A DNA stretch of 64,000 nucleotides from an uncultured Clostridium sp. (GCA_947570695.1 CANOVB010000005.1:67487-131486), one strand, 5' to 3'. Numbered from the stretch's first letter, positions 2,219 through 49,266 are shown. The notes: generated by a model not told the origin, from the sequence alone. Program-made: numbers and translations.

Positions 2219-4564
2219 TTAATTATTATTTGAGTTAAATGATGTTATTGCATCTTCATTATCGAACTTATAAGATAAATTTGATTCATTATTTTGAATT
2301 GGATCCATATCATTTGGATTATCTGGTTTAGCATGGAAATTAATATTTCTTAAATCAAATTTATTTTTGCTATAATCATCATTATCACTACCAGCTGTTG
2401 ATATTCCATTTGTAAATTTATTAAAATTATATTTTTTAATTTTTTGTTTTTCTTTATATCTTGATTCCAAGAAATCGATTTTTGCTTGACCAACAAGGTT
2501 TTTACCTTTTAAATCTTTTGTTTTATATATAATGAATTTAAATTTTAATGCCTGAACCTTACCAGCCTTAAAGTTTGGTATCCATTGCCACTTGATGCTC
2601 TTGTAAGTATCATCATATTTACCTTGATCTGTCTTATAATCATGAGTAAACATCCAACGTCTCTTATCTCCAAGTTCTTTTTCCCACCATTCATTATCTT
2701 CTGGGGTGTTATTACCAAATATAACTTTAGTAGTACAGTTAGCTAAAATTGTTTGTCTAAAGTTATAATCATTTTTAATACCAAATTGTGATAAGTTTTG
2801 AGATGATATAATTGTTCCAACTCTATATTTTCTATATAAAGTAAATATATCTTCTGTTGCTTTACATACAAAAGGTGGAAATTCATCAATATATAGGAAG
2901 TGGGGGATTCTAGTTTTTTCGTTTCCTGGTCTAGATAATACTGATTGTTGCATAAGTAGTATAAAGAATAGACCAAAAGCTTTGTGTATACTAGCTCCTA
3001 AATCGCCACGTCGTGTACATACTAAAGTTACATCTCCATTTACTAAAGCTTTATCATAATTTAAATTATTTGCTCTGTTACATAATATATTTCTAACACC
3101 TGGATACCTAAGTAGATTTTCAAGTTGTGAAGCAGAAGCTTGTAAGTATCTTGCTGTTTCTTCACGACCTTGAGCAGTTTTATAGAATGTTTTCTTAAAG
3201 TATCCAAGCTGAATTTTATATTCTTCAGCAAGTTCTGGATATTGCTTCATTTGTTCTGCCATTTGTTCTATTAAATCAAAATCATTTAATAGTTCTAATA
3301 AATCTTCTAAGTTTGGAAGTAAGCCTTCATGTTCTCTAGGATAAACTTCTTTTAACATTAATACTAAATTTTCAATGGCTTGAGTAACTATATTTTCCAT
3401 AAAAGCTTCATCATGATTTCCAAAATTTGGTACTTCTTCAGATGCGTACATTCTTTTTAGGATAGAAGATATAGCTATTGAAGTTTTCATAGGATCTTCA
3501 TAAGTGAATGGATTTAATCCTATAGAGCTATTGTCATTTGGGTCTATGATATGATATTTAACACCAAAGTTATTTGCAATATCCTTTACATGAGTTATTG
3601 ATTCATAATCAGGAGCCATATAAGTTATACCAAGATTTTTGTAAATTGAATTTTCACCATCATAATTATAAAGCATTTTTGCAAAATATGCTTTGAAAAC
3701 TTTTTCTTTACTTGGTACAGGTGTAATCATATTTAAATTAAAGTTTTCATTTATATAATCATTAGAAAAAGGACAAGAAAGAGTAGCTATATTAGTACGC
3801 AATGCTGTATATCCTAATTCTTTTGAAGTTTCTTTGAAAAAATATTTTTTCTCTAAATCTCTTGCAATCATTGGCTCAAACATCATTGAAGTTTTTCCTG
3901 AACCAGATACACCAACAATTAAAGTAGATTCAAAACGCCTAGATTCTGGAGTTTTGATTGTTTTTCCAGTTTCTCTGTCTCTACATAAGAACATTTCACA
4001 AGTAAATGGACCCATTCCAATAGATTTGTCTGATAAATCTATTCCGCCATAATCCCAAATTGATTCTTTAATGTATAATGTGTCATCAACTTTTGTATAT
4101 AACCATTTAAAAAATGGGAATATTGTACATACTGGAATATACCAAGCAAATGCTGAAAAAGCAGGCTTTATTAAATCCATAAAATTTGCAATAATATAAG
4201 AATAGTTTGGTACAGAGAAAAGTAATAACCATCCTAAATGGTTTATCCATTGAACAATCATTGATATTACTACTATATGTAACGCTGAAGCGTATATATA
4301 AAAGAAAGATGTTTTTGTGTATTTATCTGTAGCAAATTTTGATGAAGGAGAGAAGTAAAATGCAAATACTGGACATGCTAAAGCTAGTGTATATGTTATT
4401 GGACCCCAATAAGATACAGATAATCCAGAGAAAACTATAAATAGTACTTCTACAATTCTGTCAACACAAATATAGATAGAAATCAATGTTAAAATATAAG
4501 TAGCAAAGGTATTCCTATCAGTTTTTAATAATTTCAAAAATTTATCAATGTATTTCATAATCAT
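2219..4564 (-). CDS. membrane-anchored P-loop NTPase, TraG/TraD/VirD4 (type IV coupling protein)-like; about five N-terminal TM helices, then an ATPase domain
   Basis: RBS AAAGAGGA upstream of the ATG. Hydrophobic N-terminal ~170 aa. Walker A IVGVSGSGKTS and a Walker-B-like FLYIDEFPPF about 340 aa later; the long A-B spacing fits T4CP better than FtsK. Low-complexity C-terminal tail. Confidence 0.45.
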   Translation of the reverse strand: MIMKYIDKFLKLLKTDRNTFATYILTLISIYICVDRIVEVLFIVFSGLSVSYWGPITYTLALACPVFAFYFSPSSKFATDKYTKTSFFYIYASALHIVVISMIVQWINHLGWLLLFSVPNYSYIIANFMDLIKPAFSAFAWYIPVCTIFPFFKWLYTKVDDTLYIKESIWDYGGIDLSDKSIGMGPFTCEMFLCRDRETGKTIKTPESRRFESTLIVGVSGSGKTSMMFEPMIARDLEKKYFFKETSKELGYTALRTNIATLSCPFSNDYINENFNLNMITPVPSKEKVFKAYFAKMLYNYDGENSIYKNLGITYMAPDYESITHVKDIANNFGVKYHIIDPNDNSSIGLNPFTYEDPMKTSIAISSILKRMYASEEVPNFGNHDEAFMENIVTQAIENLVLMLKEVYPREHEGLLPNLEDLLELLNDFDLIEQMAEQMKQYPELAEEYKIQLGYFKKTFYKTAQGREETARYLQASASQLENLLRYPGVRNILCNRANNLNYDKALVNGDVTLVCTRRGDLGASIHKAFGLFFILLMQQSVLSRPGNEKTRIPHFLYIDEFPPFVCKATEDIFTLYRKYRVGTIISSQNLSQFGIKNDYNFRQTILANCTTKVIFGNNTPEDNEWWEKELGDKRRWMFTHDYKTDQGKYDDTYKSIKWQWIPNFKAGKVQALKFKFIIYKTKDLKGKNLVGQAKIDFLESRYKEKQKIKKYNFNKFTNGISTAGSDNDDYSKNKFDLRNINFHAKPDNPNDMDPIQNNESNLSYKFDNEDAITSFNSNNN

Positions 4565-4731
4565 AATTAAATTCCTCTTTATAAAAAACTATACATATAT
4601 ATTATCTTACAAAATGGGAAAAAAATCAAGCTTTTTGGCAAAAAAACCTTGATTTCCGTAAGAAAAATAAGAATAAAAATATAAATTTTTAATAAAATTT
4701 AATAAAAATTGATTTTGAGAGAGGGAAAGTC

Positions 4732-6288
4732 TTGAAAAAAATAGAAATTACCGATTTTTTTAAAGGAATAATATCATTAGTAATATCTCAAATTCTTATA
4801 AAAATTTTTGGAGTTATTTATAGTTTATATATAACAAATAAAAATGGATTTGGAGATGAAGGAAATGCTATATATATGAGCGGATATCAGATATATGCAT
4901 TATTACTTACAATATCTTCTATTGGAGTTCCGAATGCAATTTCTAAAATTATTTCGGAGAAAAAATCCATAAAAGATTACACAAATTTAGAAAGAATATT
5001 CAAAATATCAGTATTTGTTTTTGCAGTAATTGGATTTTTTGGAACAGTTACATTATTTATTTTTTCTGGTTTTATTGCTGAAAACATTTTACAAATACCA
5101 GAAACAAAATTGAGTTTAATGGTTTTATCGCCAGCAATATTTTTTGTTTCAATAAGTTCTGTTGTTAGAGGATATTGCAATGGAGAGAATAAAATATATG
5201 TTACAGCCAAATCGCAGTTTTTTGAACAAATAATCAAATCAGTATTAACAATTACACTTGTAGAAATATTATCAAGATTTCCAAATTCAAATACAGAAAT
5301 TTTAGCTGCAATCGCAAATTTTGCAACAACTTTAGCGACTTTTTGTAGCCTAATGTACATATTAAAAAAGTATAGAAAAATAAAAAAACAAAATATATAT
5401 TTAAGTAAATATAATTTTCCTAAAGAAAGAATATTTACTATAATAAGAAAAGTTTTGATAATATCAATTCCTATGACTACAAGTGCTATTTTAACATCAT
5501 TAGGAAAAAATGTTGATTCTGTTACAGTAGTTAGAATACTTAAAAATATTTTAGGAGAAGAAACTGCAATTATAAAATATGGAATATTAAGTTCTAAAGT
5601 GGATATATTAATAGCATTACCATTATCATTTAATATTGCAATTTCAACAGCGTTAATACCAGAAATATCCAGAAAGAAGGCAATTAATGATATATCAGGA
5701 ATAGTAAAAAAAATAGAAACTTCTATATTAATTACTATTATAATAGGAATACCATCTACATTTGGAATGTGTTTTTATTCTGAGCAAATTTTTGATTTAT
5801 TATATCCAAGAGCAAATGAAGGAGCAATTTTACTTAGCATAGCATCTTTTAGTATAATATTTTCATTACTTGTACAGACTATAAATGGAATCCTTCAAGG
5901 TCTGGGGAAAAATAATGTACCAGTTTTAGCATCAGTAATTGGATTATTAGTAAAAATATTTTCTAATATAATATTAATAAGAGTAGAGGGAATATATGAA
6001 AAAGGAGCAATTATAGGAAATATATTATCAAATATAGTTTCATTTATAATTGTATATATTGCATTAATAAGAAATATTGATATAAAATTAAATTTGCTTA
6101 AAAAAGGGATAAAACCTATTTTAGCAAGTGCGATTATGATATTTTTTTCATTAAAAATATATAATTTTTTAGTATTAAAAAATATAAATATTAATATTTG
6201 TACAATAAGTTCTATTTTCTTTGCTATACTAATTTATATTTTTTGCTGCTTTTTTATGAAAATTTTAAAGAAAAATGAAATCTCGTGA
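4732..6288 (+). CDS. MOP-superfamily flippase, stage V sporulation protein B (SpoVB)/MurJ-like polytopic membrane protein
   Basis: TTG start with RBS GAGAGGGAAAG. 518 aa with about 14 predicted TM segments. Size and organisation match SpoVB. Confidence 0.55.
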   Translation: MKKIEITDFFKGIISLVISQILIKIFGVIYSLYITNKNGFGDEGNAIYMSGYQIYALLLTISSIGVPNAISKIISEKKSIKDYTNLERIFKISVFVFAVIGFFGTVTLFIFSGFIAENILQIPETKLSLMVLSPAIFFVSISSVVRGYCNGENKIYVTAKSQFFEQIIKSVLTITLVEILSRFPNSNTEILAAIANFATTLATFCSLMYILKKYRKIKKQNIYLSKYNFPKERIFTIIRKVLIISIPMTTSAILTSLGKNVDSVTVVRILKNILGEETAIIKYGILSSKVDILIALPLSFNIAISTALIPEISRKKAINDISGIVKKIETSILITIIIGIPSTFGMCFYSEQIFDLLYPRANEGAILLSIASFSIIFSLLVQTINGILQGLGKNNVPVLASVIGLLVKIFSNIILIRVEGIYEKGAIIGNILSNIVSFIIVYIALIRNIDIKLNLLKKGIKPILASAIMIFFSLKIYNFLVLKNININICTISSIFFAILIYIFCCFFMKILKKNEIS

Positions 6289-6822: not shown

Positions 6823-6839
6823 AGAGCTATGCATCATAC

Positions 6840-7040
6840 TAAATAAAAGCTTGCGCTAATTTTACACACAAATTTAATAATGCCAATATTAAAAATATTG
6901 ATATACTGATACTGTAATAGCTAAAACTTAAATAGTATTAGTAATTTTGTGTGAGCGAACATTTCTTAATTATGTGAAATGAGCTACAGATAAGTTATTG
7001 CAGAGGAAAGATGTGGACAATTTAGAAAAGTTTTATCTTT
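6840..7040. repeat. copy of a mosaic dispersed intergenic repeat family (contains the CTACAGATAAGTTATTGCAGAG and CAATATTAAAAATATTGATATACTGAT modules)
   Basis: Shares 20-70 bp blocks with 8880-9070, 13600-13930, 21225-21320, 28620-28880 and 57620-57730. Confidence 0.55.
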
Positions 7041-7212
7041 TACATATAATATTTAGGCAATTTAGAAAAAAGTTTATTTTGCATATTAAGTATTTTTAGC
7101 TTTGTTTAAAAAATAAGTTTTATAGTTTTCTTGAAAAAACATATAAGTAATGATAACATAATAAAAAACAATTTATTTGTATTTTATTAAAAATAAAGAA
7201 ATGGTGGATATT

Positions 7213-7704
7213 ATGAAAAAAACTCTAAAAGTTATTTGTATAATTTGTGTAATAAGTTTAATTATTCTATTTACAATTAAAAATTTAAAAAAGAGTAATA
7301 ATTTAGAAAGAGATTTTGAAAAAGAACAGCAGGTTTTAGCAATAATAGAGGAAGATAGAAATAATTATATGGGACAAGGTGATGAATATATATCATATTG
7401 GGCTCCTAAACAAGCTATTTTAGATGAAGAAATAGATAAGCTTTTTATAAGACATTTAGAAGAAAAATACTATGAAGAATTAATGAATAATATTTCTAGT
7501 GAAATGAAAGAAAATTCTAGTGAAATTCCAAAAAGTACAAAAAAATTAGTAAGAGAAGCAATAAATTTATATAATGGAAATAAAATTACAGATTATGAAA
7601 AAGAAGTCTTAAAATATATTTTTGAAGGAATATATTTTACAGTTTCCACTGAAGATAGTAAGCTAGCGGATGAATTAAATACAACTGGAATAGAATTTAA
7701 ATAA
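7213..7704 (+). CDS. hypothetical membrane-anchored protein (single N-terminal TM)
   Basis: ORF with an internal ATG at 7213 preceded by AAATGGTGGA. Hydrophobic N-terminus KKTLKVICIICVISLIILF. Confidence 0.45.
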   Translation: MKKTLKVICIICVISLIILFTIKNLKKSNNLERDFEKEQQVLAIIEEDRNNYMGQGDEYISYWAPKQAILDEEIDKLFIRHLEEKYYEELMNNISSEMKENSSEIPKSTKKLVREAINLYNGNKITDYEKEVLKYIFEGIYFTVSTEDSKLADELNTTGIEFK

Positions 7705-14821: not shown

Positions 14822-16099
14822 TTACGTGATATTCAATGTTTTGCCGTTGGTCAAGACCACTTGTGTTACGAGTCCCAATTTGTTGGTGTTGAAGCTCGCA
14901 GCGTCGTAACAGAACCGATAGCCGTCCTGAGGGCGGTCATAGATGGAACTGACGAACACCTGATTATCCCTGATATAGCAGAACTGCTTATCAGAGATGA
15001 AGCCGAAAGCGGTGATGTTTGACATGTACCACCCTGTATAGATTCTCGAGGCGATAATCGTCCCATTGAGATACAGGGAGCCGTCTGTAAGCATCAGAGT
15101 GTTGCTTTCAACTGTGCCCTTGGTGTACAAGGTAGCATAGGTGTCCTTTACGACAGCGTAGGTTTCCTTAGCAATCCACTTGTCGTTTGTGGAGGTGAAT
15201 TGCTTCAGGGTGTAAGTGGACTTCTCTGTAACGATTTCCGAGAGGAAACCATTGCTGTCAGTCCTGAAGGTCTTGAACTTGCTGTCCAGGGTAACCTTCT
15301 CCGCAGAGTACCAGTTTCCGAAAGTGAAACGGTACAGAGTACCATTGCTTTCGTAGAGGTACACGTTGTAGCTGGTATCGAATCCCAAGAATTTAGCACC
15401 CTTAAGGGTGTCGGACAGCCGGACGCCGTGAGTTGCATTGAGAACGCTCTTTTCGTCTTTGCTCACAATGATGGAAACCTTCAGGTTGCCAAACTCGTAA
15501 GCGTTACGAACGAACTCGCTCTCAGCGTTGGTGTACATTTCAACACGGCTGGTGTTATTTCCCGGCCTCTGAGGAACAGAAGGCTGAGAAGGCTGGCTGG
15601 GTTGAGACGGCTGGGAAGGCTGAGTCGGCGTACTGGGAACGGTGCTACCAGTAAGAGACTGGTTACCACTTGTGGTTTGCACCGAAGTTGCCAGATCGTC
15701 GCTGTTGTAAAGCAGACATGTTACGCCAGAAGCGTACCAAGTCGATTGCTTACCATCGCTTCCAACGCTAATCAGTGCACCAGCGCTGGTGACGTAGAAG
15801 AAATCGCCATTTGTGGCAAAGCCGTTGTAACGGGAACCGGAGCCAGCAGAGTTGCTCGCAAGAACGGTTCCATTGTTGTTATACACGGTGCTGCCGATGC
15901 TGTAAAAGCTTTTGCTGGGAACGTGGGCGTCCTGCCGGCGGTCATAGGTGTACAGCTTGTACCAGGTGCAGCCCGAGGAGGCGTCATCATAGGTAAAGCC
16001 GTACGGCGCTGTGTCGGCGGTCGTGGCGGCGAAAGCAGTGGGGCAGACCCCAAAGAAGCAGCACACAACCAGGAACAATGCGATCAAAGATTTTTTCAT
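14822..16099 (-). CDS. secreted two-domain protein of unknown function with a (PSQ)n linker; foreign GC-rich composition
   Basis: Start at MKKSLIALFLVVCCFFGVCPTAFAATT (signal peptide) with RBS AGAAAGG. Extended -10 promoter TGCTATAAT with -35 TTGCCT upstream. About 55-58% GC against a ~27% background, with codons such as CTG/GGC/CGC/ACC. Internal 9-bp tandem repeats encode PSQPSQPSQPSQPS. No recognisable homology. Confidence 0.7.
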   Translation of the reverse strand: MKKSLIALFLVVCCFFGVCPTAFAATTADTAPYGFTYDDASSGCTWYKLYTYDRRQDAHVPSKSFYSIGSTVYNNNGTVLASNSAGSGSRYNGFATNGDFFYVTSAGALISVGSDGKQSTWYASGVTCLLYNSDDLATSVQTTSGNQSLTGSTVPSTPTQPSQPSQPSQPSQPSVPQRPGNNTSRVEMYTNAESEFVRNAYEFGNLKVSIIVSKDEKSVLNATHGVRLSDTLKGAKFLGFDTSYNVYLYESNGTLYRFTFGNWYSAEKVTLDSKFKTFRTDSNGFLSEIVTEKSTYTLKQFTSTNDKWIAKETYAVVKDTYATLYTKGTVESNTLMLTDGSLYLNGTIIASRIYTGWYMSNITAFGFISDKQFCYIRDNQVFVSSIYDRPQDGYRFCYDAASFNTNKLGLVTQVVLTNGKTLNIT

Positions 16100-16255
16100 G
16101 TTAGTCAACCTTTCTGTGTTAAAATAAATCTTCAAAACCATGTTAGTTCAACAAATAGCCAAAAGGTCAGCTAAATAAAGTTGAACATCAAATCCCATAA
16201 AATCATTATAGCACAAACTAGTAAAAAAGGCAAATTTATGTAAAGCTATAAAAAG

Positions 16256-17437: not shown

Positions 17438-18451
17438 TTAAATTTCAATACTTATAGCATGAGCTATACCAGGTATTGATTCACCTTGCTGGGTACTGGT
17501 TGAATTCATTAAAGCTCCAGTTGCTATCATTAAAACTTTTTTATATTTTTTTTCTTGTAGCATTTTATAAACATATCCTGAAAATACACTTGCAATACAA
17601 CCACAGCCAGAACCACCAGAATGAGTATCTTGATTTTCTTTATCAAAAATAAGAACACCACAATCATTATAATTTGATTTTATGTTGTACCCTTTGGAAG
17701 AGGCTAAATCTATTAGAATATCTTTTCCAATATGACCTAAATCACCAGTAAATATTGCATCATAATAACTTGGATTTCTTCCTGTATCTTTAAAATGAGA
17801 GATAAGAGTATCTTCAGCAGCACCAGCCATAGCAGCTCCCATATTGTTTGCATCTTTTATACCCATATCAACAATTTTTCCAGGTGTAAAACTTGTTATA
17901 AATGGACCATTTCCATTTTTAGTAAGAACTGCACATCCAGCACCTGTGACAGTCCACTGACTTGAAGGGGGCCTTTGATTTCCTAGTTCTAGTGGAAATC
18001 TGAATTGCTTTTCAGCACTACAAAAATGACTTGATGCAGAACATATTACATTATTTGCAAAATCACCATCTATAAAACTTGAAGCAACTATTAAACTTTC
18101 AACAAAAGTTGAACATGCGCCAAATAAACCTATAAAAGGTATATTAGTTTCTCTTAATCCAAAAGAAGATGCAATACACTGATTTAATAAATCACCAGCA
18201 AAACAAAAATCTATATCACTTGAAGCAATTCCTGATTTAGATATAGCCATATTAACAGTTTCTTTAACTATTTTACTTTCAGCACTTTCCCAACTTTTTT
18301 CACCCCAAAATTCATCATCCAAACATTGATCAAAGAATTGATGAAGTGGACCTTCTTTTTCCTTAGGACCAACTATAGAAGCTGTAGTAGCAATATTTAT
18401 TGGGTTAGATAAAATATAACTTTGATTACCAACTTTTTTTATAAAAATCAC
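17438..18451 (-). CDS. spoVAD: stage V sporulation protein AD (thiolase-like fold)
   Basis: Strong similarity along the full length to SpoVAD (GPKEKEGPL, GACSTFVES, GGSGCGC, ATGALMNSTSTQQGESIPGIAHA). Apparent GTG start abuts the RBS. Confidence 0.85.
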   Translation of the reverse strand: MIFIKKVGNQSYILSNPINIATTASIVGPKEKEGPLHQFFDQCLDDEFWGEKSWESAESKIVKETVNMAISKSGIASSDIDFCFAGDLLNQCIASSFGLRETNIPFIGLFGACSTFVESLIVASSFIDGDFANNVICSASSHFCSAEKQFRFPLELGNQRPPSSQWTVTGAGCAVLTKNGNGPFITSFTPGKIVDMGIKDANNMGAAMAGAAEDTLISHFKDTGRNPSYYDAIFTGDLGHIGKDILIDLASSKGYNIKSNYNDCGVLIFDKENQDTHSGGSGCGCIASVFSGYVYKMLQEKKYKKVLMIATGALMNSTSTQQGESIPGIAHAISIEI

Positions 18452-18475
18452 TCTCCTTAAAAAATAATGACCGAT

Positions 18476-18581
18476 GGGGGACGTTTGTTAATGGACATTT
18501 TTGTCCGTTAGGGATAGATATTATTTATTTTTTAAACATCTGTAATAAAGAGGACAAAAATGTCCATTAACAAACGTCCCC
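18476..18581. mobile_element. palindromic MITE-like element inserted between spoVAC and spoVAD
   Basis: Perfect 30-bp inverted arms GGGGGACGTTTGTTAATGGACATTTTTGTCC / GGACAAAAATGTCCATTAACAAACGTCCCC around a 46-bp AT-rich loop. A second copy is at 47585-47646. Confidence 0.6.
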
Positions 18582-18590
18582 AAAAGGATA

Positions 18591-19055
18591 TCAAACTAGT
18601 GTTAAACTTTGAGTATTAAATATAATGTAAATTAAACCAACAATAATACTTGAAGAAATACCATACACAAGAACTGGTCCTGCAATAGTAAACATTTTTG
18701 CGCCAACACCCATTACATATCCTTCTGATTTATATTCCATAGCAGGTGAAACAATAGAATTTGCAAATCCAGTTATAGGTACTAAAGAACCAGCACCAGC
18801 AAATTTACCAATTTTGTTAAATATATTTAATCCTGTTAAAAAAGCACTAGCAAATACTAAAAGCATAGATACAATAGTATAAGAATTTGTTTCATCTATT
18901 CCACGGATTTTACACATTTCAAAAATGATTTGACCAATAGCACAAATTAATCCGCCAACCCAAAATGCATTAAAACAATTTTTTAATATTGGAGAATTAG
19001 GCGTTTTTTCATCTACATAGGTTTGATATTCTTCTTTACTTTGAATAGGTTTCAA
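18591..19055 (-). CDS. spoVAC: stage V sporulation protein AC
   Basis: TTG start after AGGAGA. NCFNAFWVGGLICAIGQ is the conserved SpoVAC N-terminus. Confidence 0.85.
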   Translation of the reverse strand: MKPIQSKEEYQTYVDEKTPNSPILKNCFNAFWVGGLICAIGQIIFEMCKIRGIDETNSYTIVSMLLVFASAFLTGLNIFNKIGKFAGAGSLVPITGFANSIVSPAMEYKSEGYVMGVGAKMFTIAGPVLVYGISSSIIVGLIYIIFNTQSLTLV

Positions 19056-19255: not shown

Positions 19256-21205
19256 ATGGATAAATATTTAAAATTATTAAGTAAAACTTATAAAAATATT
19301 CAAGAAGTTAGTGAAGAAATTATAAATCTTCAAGCAATTTTAAACCTTCCAAAAGGAACAGAATTGTTTTTAAGTGATATTCATGGAGAATATGAAGCAT
19401 TTATACATATTCTTAATAATGGTTCAGGTATAATAAAAAGTAAAATCGAAGATATATATGAAAAAACATTGGATGAAGAAAGTAGAAAAGATTTAGCAAC
19501 TTTAATTTATTATCCAGAAGAAAAACTTAATATGATAAAAAAAGAAAAAAGTAATTTAAATGAATGGTATAAAATTACTTTATATAGATTAATTGAGGTA
19601 ACTAAGGCTGTGAGCTCAAAATATACTCGTTCAAAGGTAAGAAAGGCAATGCCTAAGGGGTTTGATTATATAATAGATGAACTTTTACATCTTCAAGGAG
19701 AAGATGCAAACAAAGAAAAATATTATAAACAGATTGTTGAAAGTATTATTGATTTAAATAGAGCAGATAATTTTATTGTAGCAATTTCTGAATTAATTAA
19801 AAGAATGGCAATAGATCATTTGCATATAGTTGGAGATATTTATGATAGGGGACCAGGAGCCCCGATTATAATGGATAAATTAATGGATTTCCACAGTTTG
19901 GATATAGAATGGGGAAATCATGACATACTTTGGATGGGAGCTGCTACTGGAAATGAAGCATGTATTAGTAATGTTGTAAGAATTTGTAGTAGATATGATA
20001 ATTTAGCAACATTAGAAGAAGGGTATGGAATTAATATTAGACCATTATCAATTTTTGCAACTGAAATGTACAAAGATGATGAATGCAAAGCATTTCTTCC
20101 AAGAAATAAGGAAATGTCTAAATATAGTAATACTGATAAAATTGTTTTATCAAAAATTCAAAAAGCAATATCAGTAATTCAATTTAAAGTAGAAGGACAG
20201 CTTATAAAGAAACATCCAGAATATAAAATGAAAGATAGATTACTACTTGACAAGATTGATTTTGAAAAAGGAGTAGTAAAAATAGATGGTAAAGAATATA
20301 AATTAAATGATATTAATTTTCCTACTATAGATATAAAAAATCCATATAAACTAACAAAAGAAGAAAAAGAAATTATGGAAAGATTAAAAAATTCTTTTAT
20401 GCATAGTGAAAAATTAAATGCTCATGTTAATTTTCTATATTCTAAAGGGCATGTTTATAAAAAATTTAATTCTAATATATTATTTCATGGTTGCATACCA
20501 ATGAAGGAAAATGGAGAATTTGATAAAGTAGAAATTTTAGGCAAATCACTAAAAGGCAAAGAACTATTAGATCATATAGAAAATGTTGCACATAAAGCTT
20601 ATTTTGGAGAGCCAAATGAGGCAAATCAAGAAGCAATAGATTTAATGTGGTATTTTTGGTGCGGTCCAAAATCACCATTATTTGGTAAAGACAAAGCCGC
20701 TACTTTTGAGAGATATTTCCTTGATGAAAAAGAGCTACATAAAGAGCATAAAAATCCTTATTATAGTTTAATAAATAGCGAAGAAATTTGTGATAAAATA
20801 TTAGAAAACTTTGAAACAAGTATTGAAGAGGGACATATAATAAATGGGCATGTACCAGTAAAAGCGAAAGATGGAGAAAGTCCTGTAAAAGCTGGTGGAA
20901 AAATGATAGTTATTGATGGTGGTTTTGCAAAAGCATATCAACCAACCACTGGAATTGCTGGTTATACATTGACTTATAATTCACACGGATTGGTTTTAGC
21001 AATGAATGAACCTTTTGAATCAAAAGCAAAAGCTATAAAAGAAGGATTAGATATTAGAACTCAAACAGTTTTAAAAGAAGATGTTGTAAGTAGAAAAAGT
21101 GTTGCTGATACAGATATAGGAAAAAAATTGCAAGAAGAGATTTCAGATTTAAAACAATTATTAATTGCATATAGAGAAGGTGTTTTAAAAGAAAATTTAC
21201 AATAA
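19256..21205 (+). CDS. fbp: fructose-1,6-bisphosphatase class 3
   Basis: ~650 aa metallophosphoesterase with DIHGEYEAF and GNHD motifs and overall Fbp(YydE) similarity. RBS AAAAAGGAGA before the internal ATG at 19256. Confidence 0.85.
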   Translation: MDKYLKLLSKTYKNIQEVSEEIINLQAILNLPKGTELFLSDIHGEYEAFIHILNNGSGIIKSKIEDIYEKTLDEESRKDLATLIYYPEEKLNMIKKEKSNLNEWYKITLYRLIEVTKAVSSKYTRSKVRKAMPKGFDYIIDELLHLQGEDANKEKYYKQIVESIIDLNRADNFIVAISELIKRMAIDHLHIVGDIYDRGPGAPIIMDKLMDFHSLDIEWGNHDILWMGAATGNEACISNVVRICSRYDNLATLEEGYGINIRPLSIFATEMYKDDECKAFLPRNKEMSKYSNTDKIVLSKIQKAISVIQFKVEGQLIKKHPEYKMKDRLLLDKIDFEKGVVKIDGKEYKLNDINFPTIDIKNPYKLTKEEKEIMERLKNSFMHSEKLNAHVNFLYSKGHVYKKFNSNILFHGCIPMKENGEFDKVEILGKSLKGKELLDHIENVAHKAYFGEPNEANQEAIDLMWYFWCGPKSPLFGKDKAATFERYFLDEKELHKEHKNPYYSLINSEEICDKILENFETSIEEGHIINGHVPVKAKDGESPVKAGGKMIVIDGGFAKAYQPTTGIAGYTLTYNSHGLVLAMNEPFESKAKAIKEGLDIRTQTVLKEDVVSRKSVADTDIGKKLQEEISDLKQLLIAYREGVLKENLQ

Positions 21206-21475
21206 ATGTTATATAAAAGATTCAACAAATATTATATGCAAATTAAATGATGTCAATATTAAAATGTTGATATACTGATGCAGGAAAAGTTAAAACTTAA
21301 CAGTATTAGTAACTTGATATACAAACAAATTTTGAAGGAGAATAAAATAAATTATAAATAAATTATGGAAACACAAGTAAATTAATTAAATAAAGCTCAT
21401 ATAAACATAAAATTAATTAGTTAAATAAATTATGGAAAAAAGTAAAATAAAATTGAATGTATAGAAAAATTATTA

Positions 21476-21562: not shown

Positions 21563-21648
21563 TATACATATAAAAGTGAAATAAAATGTGATATTATATG
21601 TTTATGTAAAAAAATGTGTTTTTTTACTGTAAACAAAGGAGAAATGTA

Positions 21649-23262
21649 ATGTTAAGCTGTTTGGGAATTTATGTAGATAAAAACTTAATAAAATACGCAA
21701 AATTAAAAAAGAACAAAGATACATTAAAAGTTGAAGCTTTTAATGTTGAAGCTTTTGAGAATTTAGATGTTGCATTAAAAAAAGTTATAAATGAAACAAA
21801 CAGTTCAAGAATTCCAATAAGTATAAATATATCAGATGAGCTTTACAATTATTTTGAAGTATTCTCAGTTTTAGAAAAAAAGGATATTACAAAATCTTTA
21901 GATATAGAATTTGAAATGTTATGTGATTCAAGAGGATATGATAAAAGTTTGCTTGAATCAAGATATATTTTAATGGAAAACAAAAATAATTATGATAAAT
22001 ATAAATCATTATATATATCTGCAAATAAAAATGAAATAGATAGAAAATTGAGTATTCTTTCAGAGTATAAATTAGCTTCAATGACACCAGTTTCAACAAG
22101 TATAACAAATCTTATTGAACCAAAACAGGGCGAAAATATTGCAATTATTAATATAGAAAATGAAACAAAAATTACAACTATAATAGATGGTCAAATTAGT
22201 AGAGTTGATGTTTTAAATTCAGGAATGGATGAGATATCACAAAAAATAAATAAAATAGAATTATCATGGAAAAAAGCTTATGATGTGTATAAAAATATTA
22301 CAATTTATGCTCATGAAGTTTTAAGCTTAGAAGAAGATGAGAATGAATATATAGATATTGTAATGCCAGTTTTATATAAAATAGCAAATGAATCAAAAAA
22401 AATAATTAATACTTCTAAAGATAGAATAGACAAAGTTTATATAACAGGTACAGGTGCAACAATTAATAATGTTGATTTATATTTCCAAGAGTTTTTTAAA
22501 AAAGCAAAATGTGAAATATTAAAACCATTTTTTATTGATTCTAGTTCTTTAAAAGTACCAGCAAAAGAATATATAGAAGTAAATTCTGCTATTGCACTTG
22601 CCTTAGATGGATTAGGGTATGTAAATAAAGATTTAAATTTTGCACCAGTATCCAAATTTGATAATATAGATATTGAAACAATAATGAATTCTAAAGATAA
22701 TATAGATTTTAAAAATTGGAAAAATTCATTTAAATCACCTTTTGATATACAAGAAAAAATGATAGCAAGAGGAATTGCAGTATTTTTAATAGCAACTATT
22801 GGTTTTTCTGTAATGGGAACTAGTATTATGAATCAAATAAGTTTGCAAAAAGATGAAGCAAAAGAACAGCTAACTCAAACTATTGCTCAAATATCAACAA
22901 TGGAGAGTGAACTTTCAAGAATAGAAAGTCAGACCAATCAATATGCTACTTTGATTAATAGCGTAGATTCTTTAAATGAAGCAAATGCTAGTGTTCAAAA
23001 TAGTAGAATAATATCTAAAGGTGCTATACCAAATTTATTAACAAGAATAATGTTTATAATACCGCAACAAGTACAAGTTATTTCAATAGAAAATAAAGAA
23101 GGTAAACATATTATTATAGAGGCTGTATCAGAAAAATATGAACAATTAGGTTACTTTTCAGCTGCAATAAAAAATGATGGTATGCTTCAAAATATTCAAT
23201 CAACAAGTGCTACAAAAAGTGATTCACTTGTTCAAATTACAATAGAAGGAGATTTACCATGA
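21649..23262 (+). CDS. type IV pilus assembly PilM-like ATPase-fold domain fused to a PilN-like TM/coiled-coil domain
   Basis: N-terminus LGIYVDKNLIKYAKLKK resembles PilM GIDIGS..IK.VEL. C-terminal ~170 aa carries one TM plus a coiled coil, as in PilN. RBS AAAGGAGAAATG. Cluster context with pilO and pilC. Confidence 0.55.
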   Translation: MLSCLGIYVDKNLIKYAKLKKNKDTLKVEAFNVEAFENLDVALKKVINETNSSRIPISINISDELYNYFEVFSVLEKKDITKSLDIEFEMLCDSRGYDKSLLESRYILMENKNNYDKYKSLYISANKNEIDRKLSILSEYKLASMTPVSTSITNLIEPKQGENIAIINIENETKITTIIDGQISRVDVLNSGMDEISQKINKIELSWKKAYDVYKNITIYAHEVLSLEEDENEYIDIVMPVLYKIANESKKIINTSKDRIDKVYITGTGATINNVDLYFQEFFKKAKCEILKPFFIDSSSLKVPAKEYIEVNSAIALALDGLGYVNKDLNFAPVSKFDNIDIETIMNSKDNIDFKNWKNSFKSPFDIQEKMIARGIAVFLIATIGFSVMGTSIMNQISLQKDEAKEQLTQTIAQISTMESELSRIESQTNQYATLINSVDSLNEANASVQNSRIISKGAIPNLLTRIMFIIPQQVQVISIENKEGKHIIIEAVSEKYEQLGYFSAAIKNDGMLQNIQSTSATKSDSLVQITIEGDLP

Positions 23263-37128: not shown

Positions 37129-37239
37129 AAAAGAGAGATAGAAAATAATCTATTATAAGTATTTACATTTTTTAATTTTATGATATAATATGTAACATAG
37201 TAAAAAAGGCGTTTGATTAAGAATTAAGTAGTAAATAAA

Positions 37240-37442
37240 CTTTTTAAAAGAGAGCTTATGGTTGGTGAGAATAAGTAAAAGAATTTACGAAATCTACTCT
37301 TAAGAGTTTCTAGAAAACTAGACCGAGTTATTGCAGGTTATAGCAATTTGAAAGATGGATTAGATTAATCTAAAAAAGGTGGTACCGCGATATATTCGCC
37401 CTTATGTATTTTTTACATGGGGGCGTTTTTGTTTAAAATATT
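37240..37442 (+). promoter_or_regulatory. T-box riboswitch leader, probable Ser (UCU) specifier
   Basis: Conserved T-box core AAAAGGTGGTACCGCG at 37375-37390. It is followed by the terminator GCCCTTATGTA-TTTTT-TACATGGGGGC plus a T-run. A stem I candidate has AAAUCUAC in the specifier-loop position. Confidence 0.75.
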
Positions 37443-43574: not shown

Positions 43575-43795
43575 ATATATTGCCCCTAAACCTAATTTAA
43601 GAATAGGGTGTAAGCTAACTTAATATGATTACTGGTTAAAAATCTGTTATAGTATTGCTACTATTTTTTTTCTTAACCTATGGTAGTAATTACCACTAGA
43701 GCATCCGCCGAATCTTTCGATAACTCTAGACCTCGTCAACTATTTTTAAAATTTATATGTATAAAAATTTTAAAGTAGTCCTGGCGCTAACCTTT
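43575..43795 (-). ncRNA. glmS ribozyme (GlcN6P-responsive self-cleaving riboswitch) in the glmS 5' UTR
   Basis: The minus strand reads ...GTTAGCGCCAGGACT... (cleavage-site/P1 region) and ...TTGACGAGGTCTAGAGTTATCGAAAGATTCGGCGGATGCTCTAG..., matching the conserved GACGAGG and UUCGGCGGAUGC core elements. Confidence 0.75.
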
Positions 43796-44072
43796 GTTTT
43801 AAATAATATACTCCTTTCTAAACTTTTGCTTACAAACTAGAAATTAAAAATTTTTTCTAGTAACCTATTTCTTTTATATAATATTCGAATTTTTTTAAAA
43901 TGTCAATATTATTTTTTGGATGTTAATGAATGTATATATATAAATGCATTCTAAATATTGAGGCTCTAAGAATTAAAATTTAAATAATTCTGGTAAAACA
44001 TTGCTAAAAGGAAATAAATATTCTTTACATGAAAAAGTAATTATAATATAATAGCTATGTATTAAAAATAGA

Positions 44073-46647: not shown

Positions 46648-46722
46648 AACAGTTTCAAACTTGCTATTTATAAGAAAAAAGTGGTATAATAAATACGTTA
46701 AAAAATTAAAGGATTAGAAAAT

Positions 46723-47586
46723 ATGGAAATAGCAAGTAATTGGAAAGATTATGAAATTTTAGATATGTCTGATGGTGAAAAGCTTGAAAAATGGAATAAT
46801 ATTATTTTAATAAGGCCAGATCCTCAGATAATTTGGAAAGAAAAAACTTTCCCTGAAAAATGGAAAAGTGCTGATGCTAGATATAGCAGAAGTAATACTG
46901 GTGGTGGAGCTTGGCAATATCATAAGAATTTGCCAAAAGCTTGGCAAGTTCATTATAAAGATTTAACTTTTAATATAAAACCAATGGGGTTTAAACACAC
47001 AGGTCTTTTCCCAGAACAGGCAGTTAATTGGGATTGGATGATAAATAAAATAAAAACAGATGGTAGAAAAGATATAAAAGTATTAAATCTTTTTGCATAT
47101 ACAGGAGGAGCAACAGTAGCTTGTAGCTATGCTGGTGCTTCTGTTTGTCATGTTGATAGTTCAAAAGGTATGGTATCATGGGCAAAAGAAAATATTGCAT
47201 CATCAGGACTTAGTGACAGACCAGTTAGATTTATAATTGATGATGTTACAAAGTTTGTTAATAGAGAAATAAGAAGAGGAAATAAATATGATGCAATAAT
47301 AATGGATCCGCCTTCTTATGGAAGAGGAAAAAATGGAGAAGTATGGCAATTTGAAAACAATATATCTGATTTAGTAGAATTATGTGCAAATGTTTTATCA
47401 AATGAACCATTATTCTTTTTGATAAATTCTTATACAACAGGGATTTCATCAAAAGTTTTAGAAAATATTTTAAGTTTAAAATTAAAAATGAAAAACGGTA
47501 AATTATCATCAGGAGAAATTGGTTTACCTATGAAAAATTCAAAATTAGTGCTTCCATGTGGAATATATGGAAGATGGGAGAGATGA
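46723..47586 (+). CDS. class I SAM-dependent RNA methyltransferase (RlmI/YccW-like family, no PUA domain)
   Basis: Rossmann motif I LNLFAYTGGATVA and motif IV MDPPSYG. Confidence 0.55.
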   Translation: MEIASNWKDYEILDMSDGEKLEKWNNIILIRPDPQIIWKEKTFPEKWKSADARYSRSNTGGGAWQYHKNLPKAWQVHYKDLTFNIKPMGFKHTGLFPEQAVNWDWMINKIKTDGRKDIKVLNLFAYTGGATVACSYAGASVCHVDSSKGMVSWAKENIASSGLSDRPVRFIIDDVTKFVNREIRRGNKYDAIIMDPPSYGRGKNGEVWQFENNISDLVELCANVLSNEPLFFLINSYTTGISSKVLENILSLKLKMKNGKLSSGEIGLPMKNSKLVLPCGIYGRWER

Positions 47587-47646
47587 CCCTTAGGGGACGT
47601 TTGTTAATGGACATTTTTGTCCATTAACAAACGTCCCCTAAGGGTC
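47585..47646. mobile_element. second copy of the palindromic MITE-like element (compact form)
   Basis: GACCCTTAGGGGACGTTTGTTAATGGACATTTTTGTCCATTAACAAACGTCCCCTAAGGGTC shares the GGGGACGTTTGTTAATGGACATTTTTGTCC core with 18476-18506. It overlaps the stop codon of the methyltransferase gene. Confidence 0.6.
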
Positions 47647-47659
47647 AAAAGGAGATATA

Positions 47660-48337
47660 ATGAAAGATTTAAAAGTACTATATGAAGATAATCATATAAT
47701 AGTGGTAGAGAAACCTGTGAATATTCCATCACAAGGGGATAAAACTGGTGATGAAGATATGCTTTCTATTATAAAAAAATATTTGAAAGAAAAATATAAT
47801 AAACCAGGAGAAGTGTATTTAGGTCTAGTTCATAGATTAGACAGACCAACAGGTGGTGTAATGGTTTTTGCAAGAACCTCAAAAGCCGCTTCCAGACTTA
47901 GTGAGCAAATAAGAGAAAAACAAATGCATAAAAAGTATTTGTGTATAGTTGATGGGAAAATGGAAAATACAAAAGGAAGTATGAAAGATTTTCTTTTGAA
48001 AAATGAAAAAACAAATACAAGTAAAGTTGTTAAAGAAGGAACTAAAAATGCAAAAGAAGCAATTTTAGATTATGAAGTAGTAAAATATAATGAAGAAATA
48101 AATATGTCAGTTGTAAAGGTTGATTTACATACAGGAAGGCATCATCAAATAAGAGTTCAATTTTCATCAAGAGGTCATAGTTTATCTGGAGATCAAAAAT
48201 ATGGAACAAGGGGGCGAGGAAAAGGACTTGCTCTTTGGGCATATAGTTTAAGCTTTTTACATCCAATAACAAAGGAAAGAATAGAATTTGAAGATTATCC
48301 AGAAGTTACAGGAAGCTGGAAAATTTTAGAAAGTTAA
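47660..48337 (+). CDS. RluA-family pseudouridine synthase
   Basis: Catalytic motif HRLDRPTGGVMVFART. Confidence 0.8.
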   Translation: MKDLKVLYEDNHIIVVEKPVNIPSQGDKTGDEDMLSIIKKYLKEKYNKPGEVYLGLVHRLDRPTGGVMVFARTSKAASRLSEQIREKQMHKKYLCIVDGKMENTKGSMKDFLLKNEKTNTSKVVKEGTKNAKEAILDYEVVKYNEEINMSVVKVDLHTGRHHQIRVQFSSRGHSLSGDQKYGTRGRGKGLALWAYSLSFLHPITKERIEFEDYPEVTGSWKILES

Positions 48338-48486
48338 AGTACATAATAGAAAGTGCTTTGCACCAATGTAAAATAAAGTTTTAGTGATAATGAAAGTTTA
48401 GAAAAAGTTATTAATTTATTAAAGGTATATTTTTTAAAAATTAGAATACCCTTTACTAAATAAATTTTAGTGGAGGGGATTTTTTT

Positions 48487-49266
48487 ATGGATAAAATAAT
48501 GAGATACAGTTTTGTTGTAGGACTTTTAATAGTTTGCATTTTACAATTCGCATTGTCTTCACAAGCAAATACCTTAAGTAATGAACTTTTGGCTTGGGGA
48601 TTTAGAAGAGGTGAAAATCATAAACAGGCAAGCTTAGATACTGCAAGTGAGAAAGTTATAAGAGAATTTGAAGGAATTTCAATGGGAAATCCAAATAGTC
48701 AAAAAATTTATTTAACTTTTGATTGTGGATATGAAGCAGGATATACAGAAGCAATTTTAGATGCACTTGCTGAAAATGATGTTAAAGCAAGTTTTTTTAT
48801 TACAGCACATTATTTAAATACAGCAGGTGATATTGTAAAAAGAATGATTGAAGAAGGTCATATCGTAGGAAATCATACTGTTAATCATAAATGCTTACCT
48901 AATATTAGTGATGATGAAATAAAAAAGGAAGTTATGGATTTGCATAATAGTTTATATGAAAAATTTGGATATGAGATGACATATTTTAGACCACCAAAAG
49001 GTGAATTTAGTGAGAGAGTTATAAGTGTAGTAAAAGACTTAGGATATACCACAGTTATGTGGTCTTCTGCATATGATGACTGGGATAAAGAAAAACAAGG
49101 AAGAGAAGAATATGGAAAAAAGAAAATAGTAGATAATGTACATAATGGCTGTGTATTATTATTACATGCAACTTCAAGTGATAATAGTAAAATTTTATCT
49201 GATGTAATAAAAGATATAAAAAATATGGGATATGAATTTAAAAATATAAATGAATTTGAATGGTAG
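48487..49266 (+). CDS. polysaccharide deacetylase (NodB-fold), PdaA-like sporulation-associated
   Basis: Signal peptide. TFDCGYE (TFDDG-like motif 1) and HTVNH (motif 2). 259 aa. Confidence 0.75.
   Translation: MDKIMRYSFVVGLLIVCILQFALSSQANTLSNELLAWGFRRGENHKQASLDTASEKVIREFEGISMGNPNSQKIYLTFDCGYEAGYTEAILDALAENDVKASFFITAHYLNTAGDIVKRMIEEGHIVGNHTVNHKCLPNISDDEIKKEVMDLHNSLYEKFGYEMTYFRPPKGEFSERVISVVKDLGYTTVMWSSAYDDWDKEKQGREEYGKKKIVDNVHNGCVLLLHATSSDNSKILSDVIKDIKNMGYEFKNINEFEW

Follow-up and report, generated by a model that had tools for sequence, protein, structure and literature searches.

Two operon-junction hairpins in an uncultured Clostridium are probable miniature derivatives of a RAYT-like Y1 transposase unit

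The TnpA-Y1 transposases of subclass 2.1 have a median length of ~238 amino acids (aa) and a C-terminal helix-turn-helix (HTH) domain (Bac_DnaA_C, HTH_23 or HTH_28), and according to Quentin et al. (2018, PMC6006769) they correspond to the Group 1 RAYTs of Bertels et al. and the TIRYTs of Di Nocera et al. For this group, the largest of the RAYT-like ones, an association with repeats is under dispute. Di Nocera et al. (2013, PMC3733652) described terminal inverted repeats (TIRs) that form moderately abundant singles, dimers and clusters, only "some" of which carry the motif GGGGWSAS. Quentin et al., on the other side, reported that subclass 2.1 genes have no repetitive extragenic palindromic (REP)-like sequences in their vicinity. 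Bertels et al. (2017, PMC5581495) saw only modest flanking repeats for Group 1 RAYTs, a group "also found in the Clostridia". In these papers no example is given from the Clostridia or other Firmicutes, and Di Nocera et al. mention neither taxon. Here we describe two hairpin-forming elements in a 64,000-nt stretch of DNA from an uncultured Clostridium sp. (GCA_947570695.1 CANOVB010000005.1:67487-131486; hereafter the window). One (copy 1) lies between spoVAC and spoVAD of the spore dipicolinic acid (DPA)-channel operon spoVA, and the other (copy 2) between a methyltransferase gene and the gene for an RluA-type pseudouridine synthase (RluA). Both are probably non-autonomous, miniature inverted doublets, similar to REPINs or miniature inverted-repeat transposable elements (MITEs), that derive from a TIRtron and are mobilized by a transposase encoded elsewhere. 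The TIRtron would be a single-copy RAYT-like Y1/HUH transposase gene bracketed by TIRs of ~39-55 nt.

The 139-nt gap between spoVAC (18591..19055, minus strand) and spoVAD (17438..18451, minus strand; spoVAE is next) houses a perfect 30-bp inverted repeat, as the original prediction for this DNA had stated. Its arms (18477-18506 and 18552-18581; the first reads GGGGACGTTTGTTAATGGACATTTTTGTCC on the plus strand) are 30 nt each and 100% complementary. They are separated by 45 nt rather than the 46 nt first reported, and the five-G 31-mer of that prediction has one mismatch in the second arm. Copy 2 had been described as a 62-bp hairpin with the same core, overlapping the methyltransferase stop codon. 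The core and the overlap hold, and the size becomes 64 bp: copy 2 is a perfect palindrome (47584-47647) with 30-nt arms at 47584-47613 and 47618-47647 around a 4-nt centre, and the stop codon TGA (47584..47586, plus strand) forms its first three bases, the TGA of TGACC. A search with the 31-mer, allowing up to three mismatches, gave three matches in the window versus none in 100 shuffles. With an arm profile (nhmmer), matches in the window were confined to these four arms, and no diverged extra copies came to light there.

Oriented from outside to inside, the arms share a 39-nt module, TGWCC-N4-GGGGAC-N10-GGACATTTTTGTCC, in which TGWCC, the variable N4 and GGGGAC are followed by a linker of 10 nt (GTTTGTTAAT in the window) and a mini-hairpin (GGACA-TTTT-TGTCC). 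Copy 1 consists of two full arms and 45 nt of AT-rich sequence. Its promoter-proximal arm (18552..18590, minus strand), which matches the arm profile, reads TATCC-TTTT-GGGGAC-GTTTGTTAAT-GGACATTTTTGTCC on the spoVA mRNA strand and adjoins the spoVAC stop codon TGA (18591..18593, minus strand) with a gap of 0 nt. The distal arm (18468..18506, plus strand) reads TGACC-GATG-GGGGAC-GTTTGTTAAT-GGACATTTTTGTCC 5' to 3' on the plus strand; on the mRNA it ends in GTCCCC-CATC-GGTCA and is followed by TTATTTTTTAAGGAGA and then by the spoVAD start. Copy 2 (47584..47647, plus strand) is the minimal "double-foot" form, TGACC-CTTA-GGGGAC-GTTTGTTAAT-GGACATTTTTGTCC-ATTAACAAAC-GTCCCC-TAAG-GGTCA, in which both arms share the central mini-hairpin.

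Relatives were ranked by SpoVAD identity for the spoVA junction and by RluA identity for the methyltransferase-RluA junction. The spoVAC-spoVAD junction is free of the element in all four lineages compared. It measures 1 nt in the lineage with 86% SpoVAD identity and 10 nt (AGGAGAACAT) in the 82% lineage, and it holds unrelated spacers of 96 nt in the 94% lineage and 71 nt in the 91% lineage, or 279 nt where the latter carries another inverted-repeat element of 208 bp. The spoVAC gene ends in GTT TAA in three of the four lineages and in TAG in the 86% lineage (L024-26); the window has TGA. At the other junction the two genes overlap by 4 nt (ATGA) at 87% RluA identity, abut with 0 nt at 91%, and are 18 nt apart, with their own Shine-Dalgarno (SD) sequence, at 95%. 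In the window, 73 nt separate the S-adenosylmethionine (SAM)-methyltransferase open reading frame (ORF; 46723..47586) from the RluA ATG at 47660, and these consist of the palindrome followed by AAAGGAGATATA; the AAGGAG SD of RluA (47649..47654, plus strand) comes directly past the palindrome. As judged from sequence, this comparison shows both window copies to be lineage-specific insertions.

The 208-bp element (L023, ~945-1155) is different from ours. It has terminal inverted repeats of ~25 bp (TTATAAGATGAATTAAATAATATAT...) and is missing from L022, which encodes an identical SpoVAD. Small elements seem to have landed at the spoVAC-spoVAD junction repeatedly. At the copy 2 junction, DNA identity between L044 and the window (46716-49260) is 95% from RluA on and 80% across the methyltransferase gene. 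This shift in divergence may mark a recombination boundary.

The original prediction had allowed for an ancestral regulatory hairpin, in the case that only these two copies existed and that relatives all carried one at the spoVA junction. The element-free junctions in relatives show that this is not the situation, and the empty sites effectively refute the idea that a regulatory hairpin (an attenuator, terminator or operator) evolved locally in each operon. Such hairpins could well be operon-internal and extremely stable as RNA, as both copies are, and copy 1 is also conserved in another sample of the species; against this stand identical arms at two unrelated loci, the same sequence at other loci of other genomes, and the lack of both a U-tract and an Rfam family. 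We consider this explanation scarcely tenable.

RNA folding gave -58.5 kcal/mol for copy 1 (z = -9.2) and -57.1 kcal/mol for copy 2 (z = -12.1). Scans for terminators and promoters yielded nothing convincing. Neither long hairpin has a U-tract, so that neither is the GC-rich hairpin plus U-tract of an intrinsic (Rho-independent) terminator, and the only match was the 5-bp inner mini-hairpin. Rfam, run on the whole window, found nothing at either element. It did match a T-box leader at 37203-37406 (plus strand; 93.8 bits, gathering score 93) and a glmS ribozyme at 43624-43799 (minus strand; 77 bits), both ordinary cis-regulatory RNAs that are unrelated to the elements.

A hairpin of about -58 kcal/mol now separates spoVAC from spoVAD, and copy 2 has replaced an ancestrally tight junction (4-nt overlap to 18 nt), so the relative expression of the two cistrons could change at either place. 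By analogy, hairpins this stable probably alter intercistronic expression. Once transcribed they would not terminate transcription; they would instead uncouple translation of the neighbouring cistrons and block 3'->5' exonucleases, giving the upstream segment a different stability. As their first bases lie at or inside the stop codon, terminating ribosomes may be hindered as well. In E. coli, REPs whose distance from a stop codon is below 16 nt reduce translation (Liang et al. 2015, summarized in PMC12306157).

The AAGGAG SD of spoVAD (18453..18458, minus strand) is native, as it also occurs in the element-free sister lineage L019-21 (...ATTTTAAGGA|gtgatt). The GTG called as the spoVAD start lies only 1 nt past this SD (window 18440-18460), and the sister-lineage start codon ATG (ATG AAG AAA GTT...) is ATA in the window, so the called start is tentative. 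Since this oddity is also present in the element-free sister lineage, it was not caused by the insertion.

Copy 1 was found at the same spoVA site in L010, an independent metagenome assembly of the same species, and is therefore no assembly artefact. L010 was the one other same-species assembly in which the junction was read; 17 further contigs with the same neighbouring genes were left out. The element is present in both, and the recent activity proposed at the outset is a conjecture. L010 and the window differ at 4 of 6,465 positions (3539, 3542, 3543 and 3563 of L010, corresponding to ~18493-18517 in window copy 1), and all four fall within the 139-nt element (chance ~2e-7). This could stem from gene conversion between copies, from mutation associated with the hairpin, or from repeat copies having been mixed up in metagenome assembly. 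A second same-species contig, L011, departs from the window midway through the first arm and continues in unrelated AT-rich sequence to the contig end (3485-3652). We rejected it as a variant and read it as a repeat-induced assembly break, with the divergence inside the arm, 187 nt before the contig end. It is probably a mis-join, the alternative being a larger insertion into the arm.

The element belongs to a wider family. An exact 20-mer core of the arm occurs in 2 of 185,579 species genomes (GTDB), those of Clostridiales bacterium UBA7001 and of the mouse-gut metagenome-assembled genome iMGMC-941. It marks nine loci (seven contigs of iMGMC-941 and two of UBA7001), to which arm-profile matches add further arms. 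Arm spacings at these loci are 6, 78, 90 and 262 nt, single arms also occur, and several loci lie near contig ends; across the family a spacing of 65 nt was seen as well. A slightly degenerate 20-mer found seven metagenome contigs, five of them from low-GC relatives; the arm profile does not match L015 (57% GC) and L018 (43% GC), which are probably chance matches of the degenerate 20-mer. The 20-mer core had no matches in viral contigs, hence there is no sign of a phage vector. Longer relatives (L005, L007, L006, L003, L009) share a conserved interior beginning with tatacatatgttgtttt, and a degenerate third arm fragment often lies next to one of their arms. The window's SpoVAD falls with a 90%-cluster protein annotated as Candidatus Scatovivens faecipullorum (Clostridia). 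The further copies in related genomes, together with the empty junctions, support the mobile-element interpretation that had been proposed at the outset.

A cognate enzyme of the IS200/IS605 type had also been anticipated. In relatives, the same arms do bracket a Y1 (HUH) gene of the IS200 superfamily, whereas TnpB is uninvolved; the class is nearest to RAYT/TIRYT rather than to a canonical IS200/IS605 insertion sequence. In L002, a complete ORF of 262 aa (4526..5314, minus strand) sits between inverted arm doublets, with the sequence tatacgtatgtttaat inverted just inside each doublet. Inverted arms also bracket the UBA7001 orthologue, which is complete in L012; L004 shows the 5'-side arm only, as that locus ends inside the gene. 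Homologues of 83% (L033-35) and 76% identity (L030-32) have inverted arms on both sides, and long TIRs thus flank the Y1 gene in L002, L012, L030-32, L033-35 and L036-37. Many other homologues are found on ~910-bp contigs with both contig ends inside arms, as expected if a multi-copy repeat bounds the gene. Two homologues on short contigs (P0124 and P0126) were considered as the window's own transposase locus and rejected, their arms having a different linker.

Dispersed copies match the ends of the gene unit beyond the arm. Positions 3-58 of window copy 1 match the end of the L012 unit (87.5% over 56 nt), and L005, in its right part, agrees with the right end of L002 (93% over 57 nt). The 45-nt AT-rich interior of copy 1 (18507..18551, minus strand) is homologous to the subterminal sequence (tatacRtatgtt...) just inside the arms of relatives' transposase units. 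We therefore regard the dispersed copies as miniature derivatives of that unit. The 10-nt linker varies by transposase lineage (GTTTGTTAAT, GTTAGTTTTT, GCAGGTTTTT or GTTTCTATAT), while TGWCC-N4-GGGGAC and GGACATTTTTGTCC are conserved.

The gene order GH15-Y1 transposase-radA is identical in four lineages, and divergence ranks alike for the three proteins (Y1 83/76/56%, GH15 88/74/66%, RadA 98/88%). This parallel between the transposase and its neighbours suggests a fixed, vertically inherited locus. At L002 5414-5423 and L035 2391-2401 the GH15 ORF reads into the arm and ends at a TAG formed from N4+GGGG, so the repeat contributes the last two or three codons and the stop of the GH15 protein.

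Y1_Tnp (Pfam) matched the protein with 52.5 bits (cutoff 23) and matched 31 of 31 homologues. The motifs NH[IV]H and Y[IV]H[RQFK]NP are present in all 31 aligned homologues and hLFQxR[YF] in 27. Length ranges from 249 to 278 aa among homologues, with 254 aa for the arm-bracketed protein. For the C-terminal HTH, HTH_23 was weakly matched in 8/31 homologues and HTH_28 in 4/31, and Bac_DnaA_C in none of the 31. These motifs, the length and the C-terminal HTH are the signature of TnpA-Y1 subclass 2.1 (Group 1 RAYT/TIRYT). Compared with the published subclass 2.1 table, the u residue of HUH is I or V (table: V, Y, F) and residue four of the Y motif is R or Q, not L.

Structural comparison placed the protein near a REP-processing enzyme. 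A phmmer search of PDB sequences with the Y1 protein matched nothing, and a profile of the 31 homologues matched only 4ER8 (E. coli TnpA_REP), weakly (E = 0.52). The AlphaFold (AF2) model has a pLDDT of 92, and its all-helical C-terminal domain reaches at least 89. In a fold search of the PDB the top match was again 4ER8, TnpA_REP on a REP hairpin (E = 3e-6, TM 0.67 on target), with the TnpA structures of IS608, ISDra2 and IS200 ranking behind it.

We looked for flanking direct repeats, and no complete copy has a target-site duplication. Their absence is predicted by HUH single-strand transposition, not by DDE-type MITEs. A 4-nt ATGA duplication at copy 2, suggested by an empty site of the L040 type, was rejected because in L044, the nearest relative, the two genes are separated by an 18-nt spacer that carries an SD of its own, and because other copies show no duplication.

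The missing duplications bear on a second alternative, namely that these are ordinary MITEs mobilized in trans by an insertion sequence of the DDE type whose ends match theirs, and that the Y1 gene is flanked by chance. Long terminal inverted repeats of the form 5'-TG ... CA-3' with a variable interior would fit this, and the 208-bp insertion in L023 shows that MITE-like elements reach the spoVA junction. We nevertheless find it improbable. In each lineage examined the arms bracket the Y1 gene, their distance from it is constant and the subterminal sequence is shared. The arm linker varies along with the Y1 lineage, and none of ~45 loci showed a DDE transposase gene beside an arm.

Stop codons were tallied at the 15 arm ends (14 distinct loci) that are entered by an upstream ORF with 80 codons or more. 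In nine, the ORF stops directly at the first base of TGWCC, and in six it stops inside the arm (TGA of TGACC in four, TAG from N4+GGGG in two); there is never a gap. At the ten arm ends that face a downstream gene, the start codon lies 11-16 nt past the arm, which is space for just an SD and a spacer. Each resolved copy thus fits precisely into the space from a stop codon to the next SD, among co-directional genes; where TGACC and the stop codon overlap, the element edges are uncertain by ~3 nt. Much of this placement can be accounted for by selection acting on very compact operon junctions. A true target specificity for stop-SD junctions, in which the element's ends can supply the stop (TGA/TAG) and the repeat family, as a vertically inherited REPIN-like partner of a Group 1 RAYT, systematically re-tunes expression within Firmicute operons, including spoVA, is a speculative alternative that we would not expect to hold. 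If true, it would extend the REPIN-RAYT concept of a "domesticated replicator" to the largest RAYT group, so far considered repeat-poor.

In the likeliest scenario, mobilization of miniature TIRtron doublets, the Y1 transposase encoded elsewhere in the genome would recognize the arms, maybe as single-strand hairpins, with the C-terminal HTH possibly reading the repeated, regularly spaced GGAC/GTCC half-sites. The doublets would be excised and integrated by HUH single-strand cleavage and ligation, without target-site duplication. Copy 1 would keep both arms and 45 nt of the unit's subterminal sequence, and copy 2 would be the minimal form.

The same half-sites would also suit a dimeric HTH protein that does not mobilize anything. 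A domesticated Y1/HTH protein could bind or process the arms as its dispersed sites, which would have spread mainly by recombination, gene conversion or fold-back (template-switch) duplication rather than by transposition. The gene's apparently fixed, vertically inherited locus agrees with this, as do the partial, nested and tandem arm fragments in L001, L002 and L008, and N4 is the same in both arms of L007, L006 and window copy 2, as inverted duplication would give. The confinement of all four L010-window differences to the element fits gene conversion. However, recombination alone is insufficient to produce clean-edged copies at many unrelated loci that are empty in relatives, the HUH and catalytic Tyr motifs are intact in 31 diverse homologues, and the nearest solved structure is that of a REP-cleaving nuclease. 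Domestication without mobilization therefore seems to us unlikely, if less so than the DDE-type MITE.

Several observations weigh against mobilization by a TIRtron transposase. A tblastn search with the Y1 protein did not find the transposase gene in the 64-kb window, and the window genome's own Y1 copy was not found, so the link to the transposase rests on related genomes. The exact window-type linker stands next to a Y1 gene only in iMGMC-941 and UBA7001; the flanking arms of the two best-sampled lineages have a 10-nt linker unlike the window's. The sole NCBIfam match, the equivalog REP_Tyr_transpos (NF047646), reached 53.3 bits where its cutoff is 80. For this family we observed no transposition, no excision and no presence/absence polymorphism between strains, copy 1 being present in L010 as well. 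The papers on this group (PMC3733652, PMC6006769) report no biochemical demonstration of a subclass 2.1 enzyme acting on its own TIRs. The effects proposed at the RNA level are drawn by analogy with E. coli REPs.

Two other features of the window were noted. An unrelated intergenic direct repeat of ~100 nt occurs at 21195-21330 and 6825-6962 (plus strand), upstream of the plus-strand ORFs 21616..23262 and 7177..7704. Its copies are 79% identical over a 108-nt BLAST match (84% mean column identity in a 138-column alignment) and have no Rfam match; a common leader, a promoter region and another small repeat are candidate explanations. The ORF 14822..16141 (minus strand) encodes a secreted-looking protein with PSQ repeats, and long ORFs overlap on both strands at 14822-16174. 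This suggests a local G+C content far above the window's 27%, possibly that of foreign DNA.

Among known systems, TIRtrons with their TIRYT genes are the closest to this family. Common to both are a RAYT-like Y1 gene between long terminal inverted repeats with GGGG[AT][CG] at their start, a protein of ~240-260 aa that has the motifs NHxH, FQ and Y[IV]HxNP and an HTH at its C-terminus, and TIRs that are also dispersed, moderately abundant, often in dimers or clusters, and partly self-complementary. Our family shows such dispersal, with two doublets in the window and further arms in iMGMC-941 and UBA7001. The arm sequence GGGGACGT (AGGGACGC in the L033 lineage) agrees with the TIR motif GGGGWSAS at only six of eight positions. 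The family also differs in its modular arm, TGWCC-N4-GGGGAC-N10-GGACATTTTTGTCC, and in that occupied and empty sites, gene-unit subterminal homology and strict stop-SD placement could be documented here.

The broader REPIN-RAYT or REPtron systems of Gammaproteobacteria (E. coli TnpA_REP, Pseudomonas; PMC3116915, PMC6006769) likewise have inverted doublets of short palindromes that form long hairpins, extragenic dispersal after coding regions, and a Y1 gene that is flanked by the same repeats and co-varies with them. Their Y1 gene is single-copy and vertically inherited; for ours, synteny in four lineages and divergence in parallel with the neighbours suggest vertical inheritance, and it may be single-copy too. 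The best structural match of the protein is also theirs (4ER8, TnpA_REP). In contrast, the tetranucleotide GT[AG]G of canonical REPs is at no foot of the present arms (0/32 distinct arms), whose feet are TGWCC-N4-GGGGAC. The protein is of another subclass, longer, with an HTH tail, and scores below the NCBIfam RAYT cutoff, and the copy number seen so far is modest. The "double-foot" REPs of subclass 2.4 (PMC6006769) resemble the copy 2 palindrome in having a terminal motif and its reverse complement at the feet, although both the motif and the transposase subclass are different. Quentin et al. suggested that the double-foot form can arise by a central deletion within an inverted REP dimer.

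IS200/IS605 elements and their palindrome-associated miniature derivatives share the HUH/Y1 fold, hairpin-forming ends and insertion without target-site duplication. However, their tyrosine motif is Y-x-x-x-Q rather than Y-x-x-x-N-P, their TnpA (~150 aa) is ~100 aa shorter, and they have asymmetric left and right ends and multiple identical copies, whereas the present family has true inverted repeats, one syntenic gene locus and no tnpB. The Correia/NEMIS, RUP and ERIC MITEs are also small non-coding inverted-repeat elements, and they are co-transcribed with their neighbours and can change mRNA stability (PMC3733652), but they are DDE-mobilized and have target-site duplications, which are absent here. 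A CGTC-tagged REP family of Di Nocera et al. was considered since the arm contains CGTC; it was rejected, as those REPs have an unpaired tag and no transposase.

For annotators, the repeats matter in that they break metagenome assemblies and can extend or truncate called ORFs, as at the GH15 C-terminus in L002 and L035. For the dispute between Di Nocera et al. on one side and Quentin et al. and Bertels et al. on the other, the locus offers a clean Firmicute example, with empty sites, derivation from the gene unit, co-variation of arm and transposase, a fixed gene locus and exact stop-SD placement. The kind of system is already known, as TIRtron/TIRYT and, more broadly, as REPIN-RAYT; what is new relative to these is this particular repeat family and the quality of the case.

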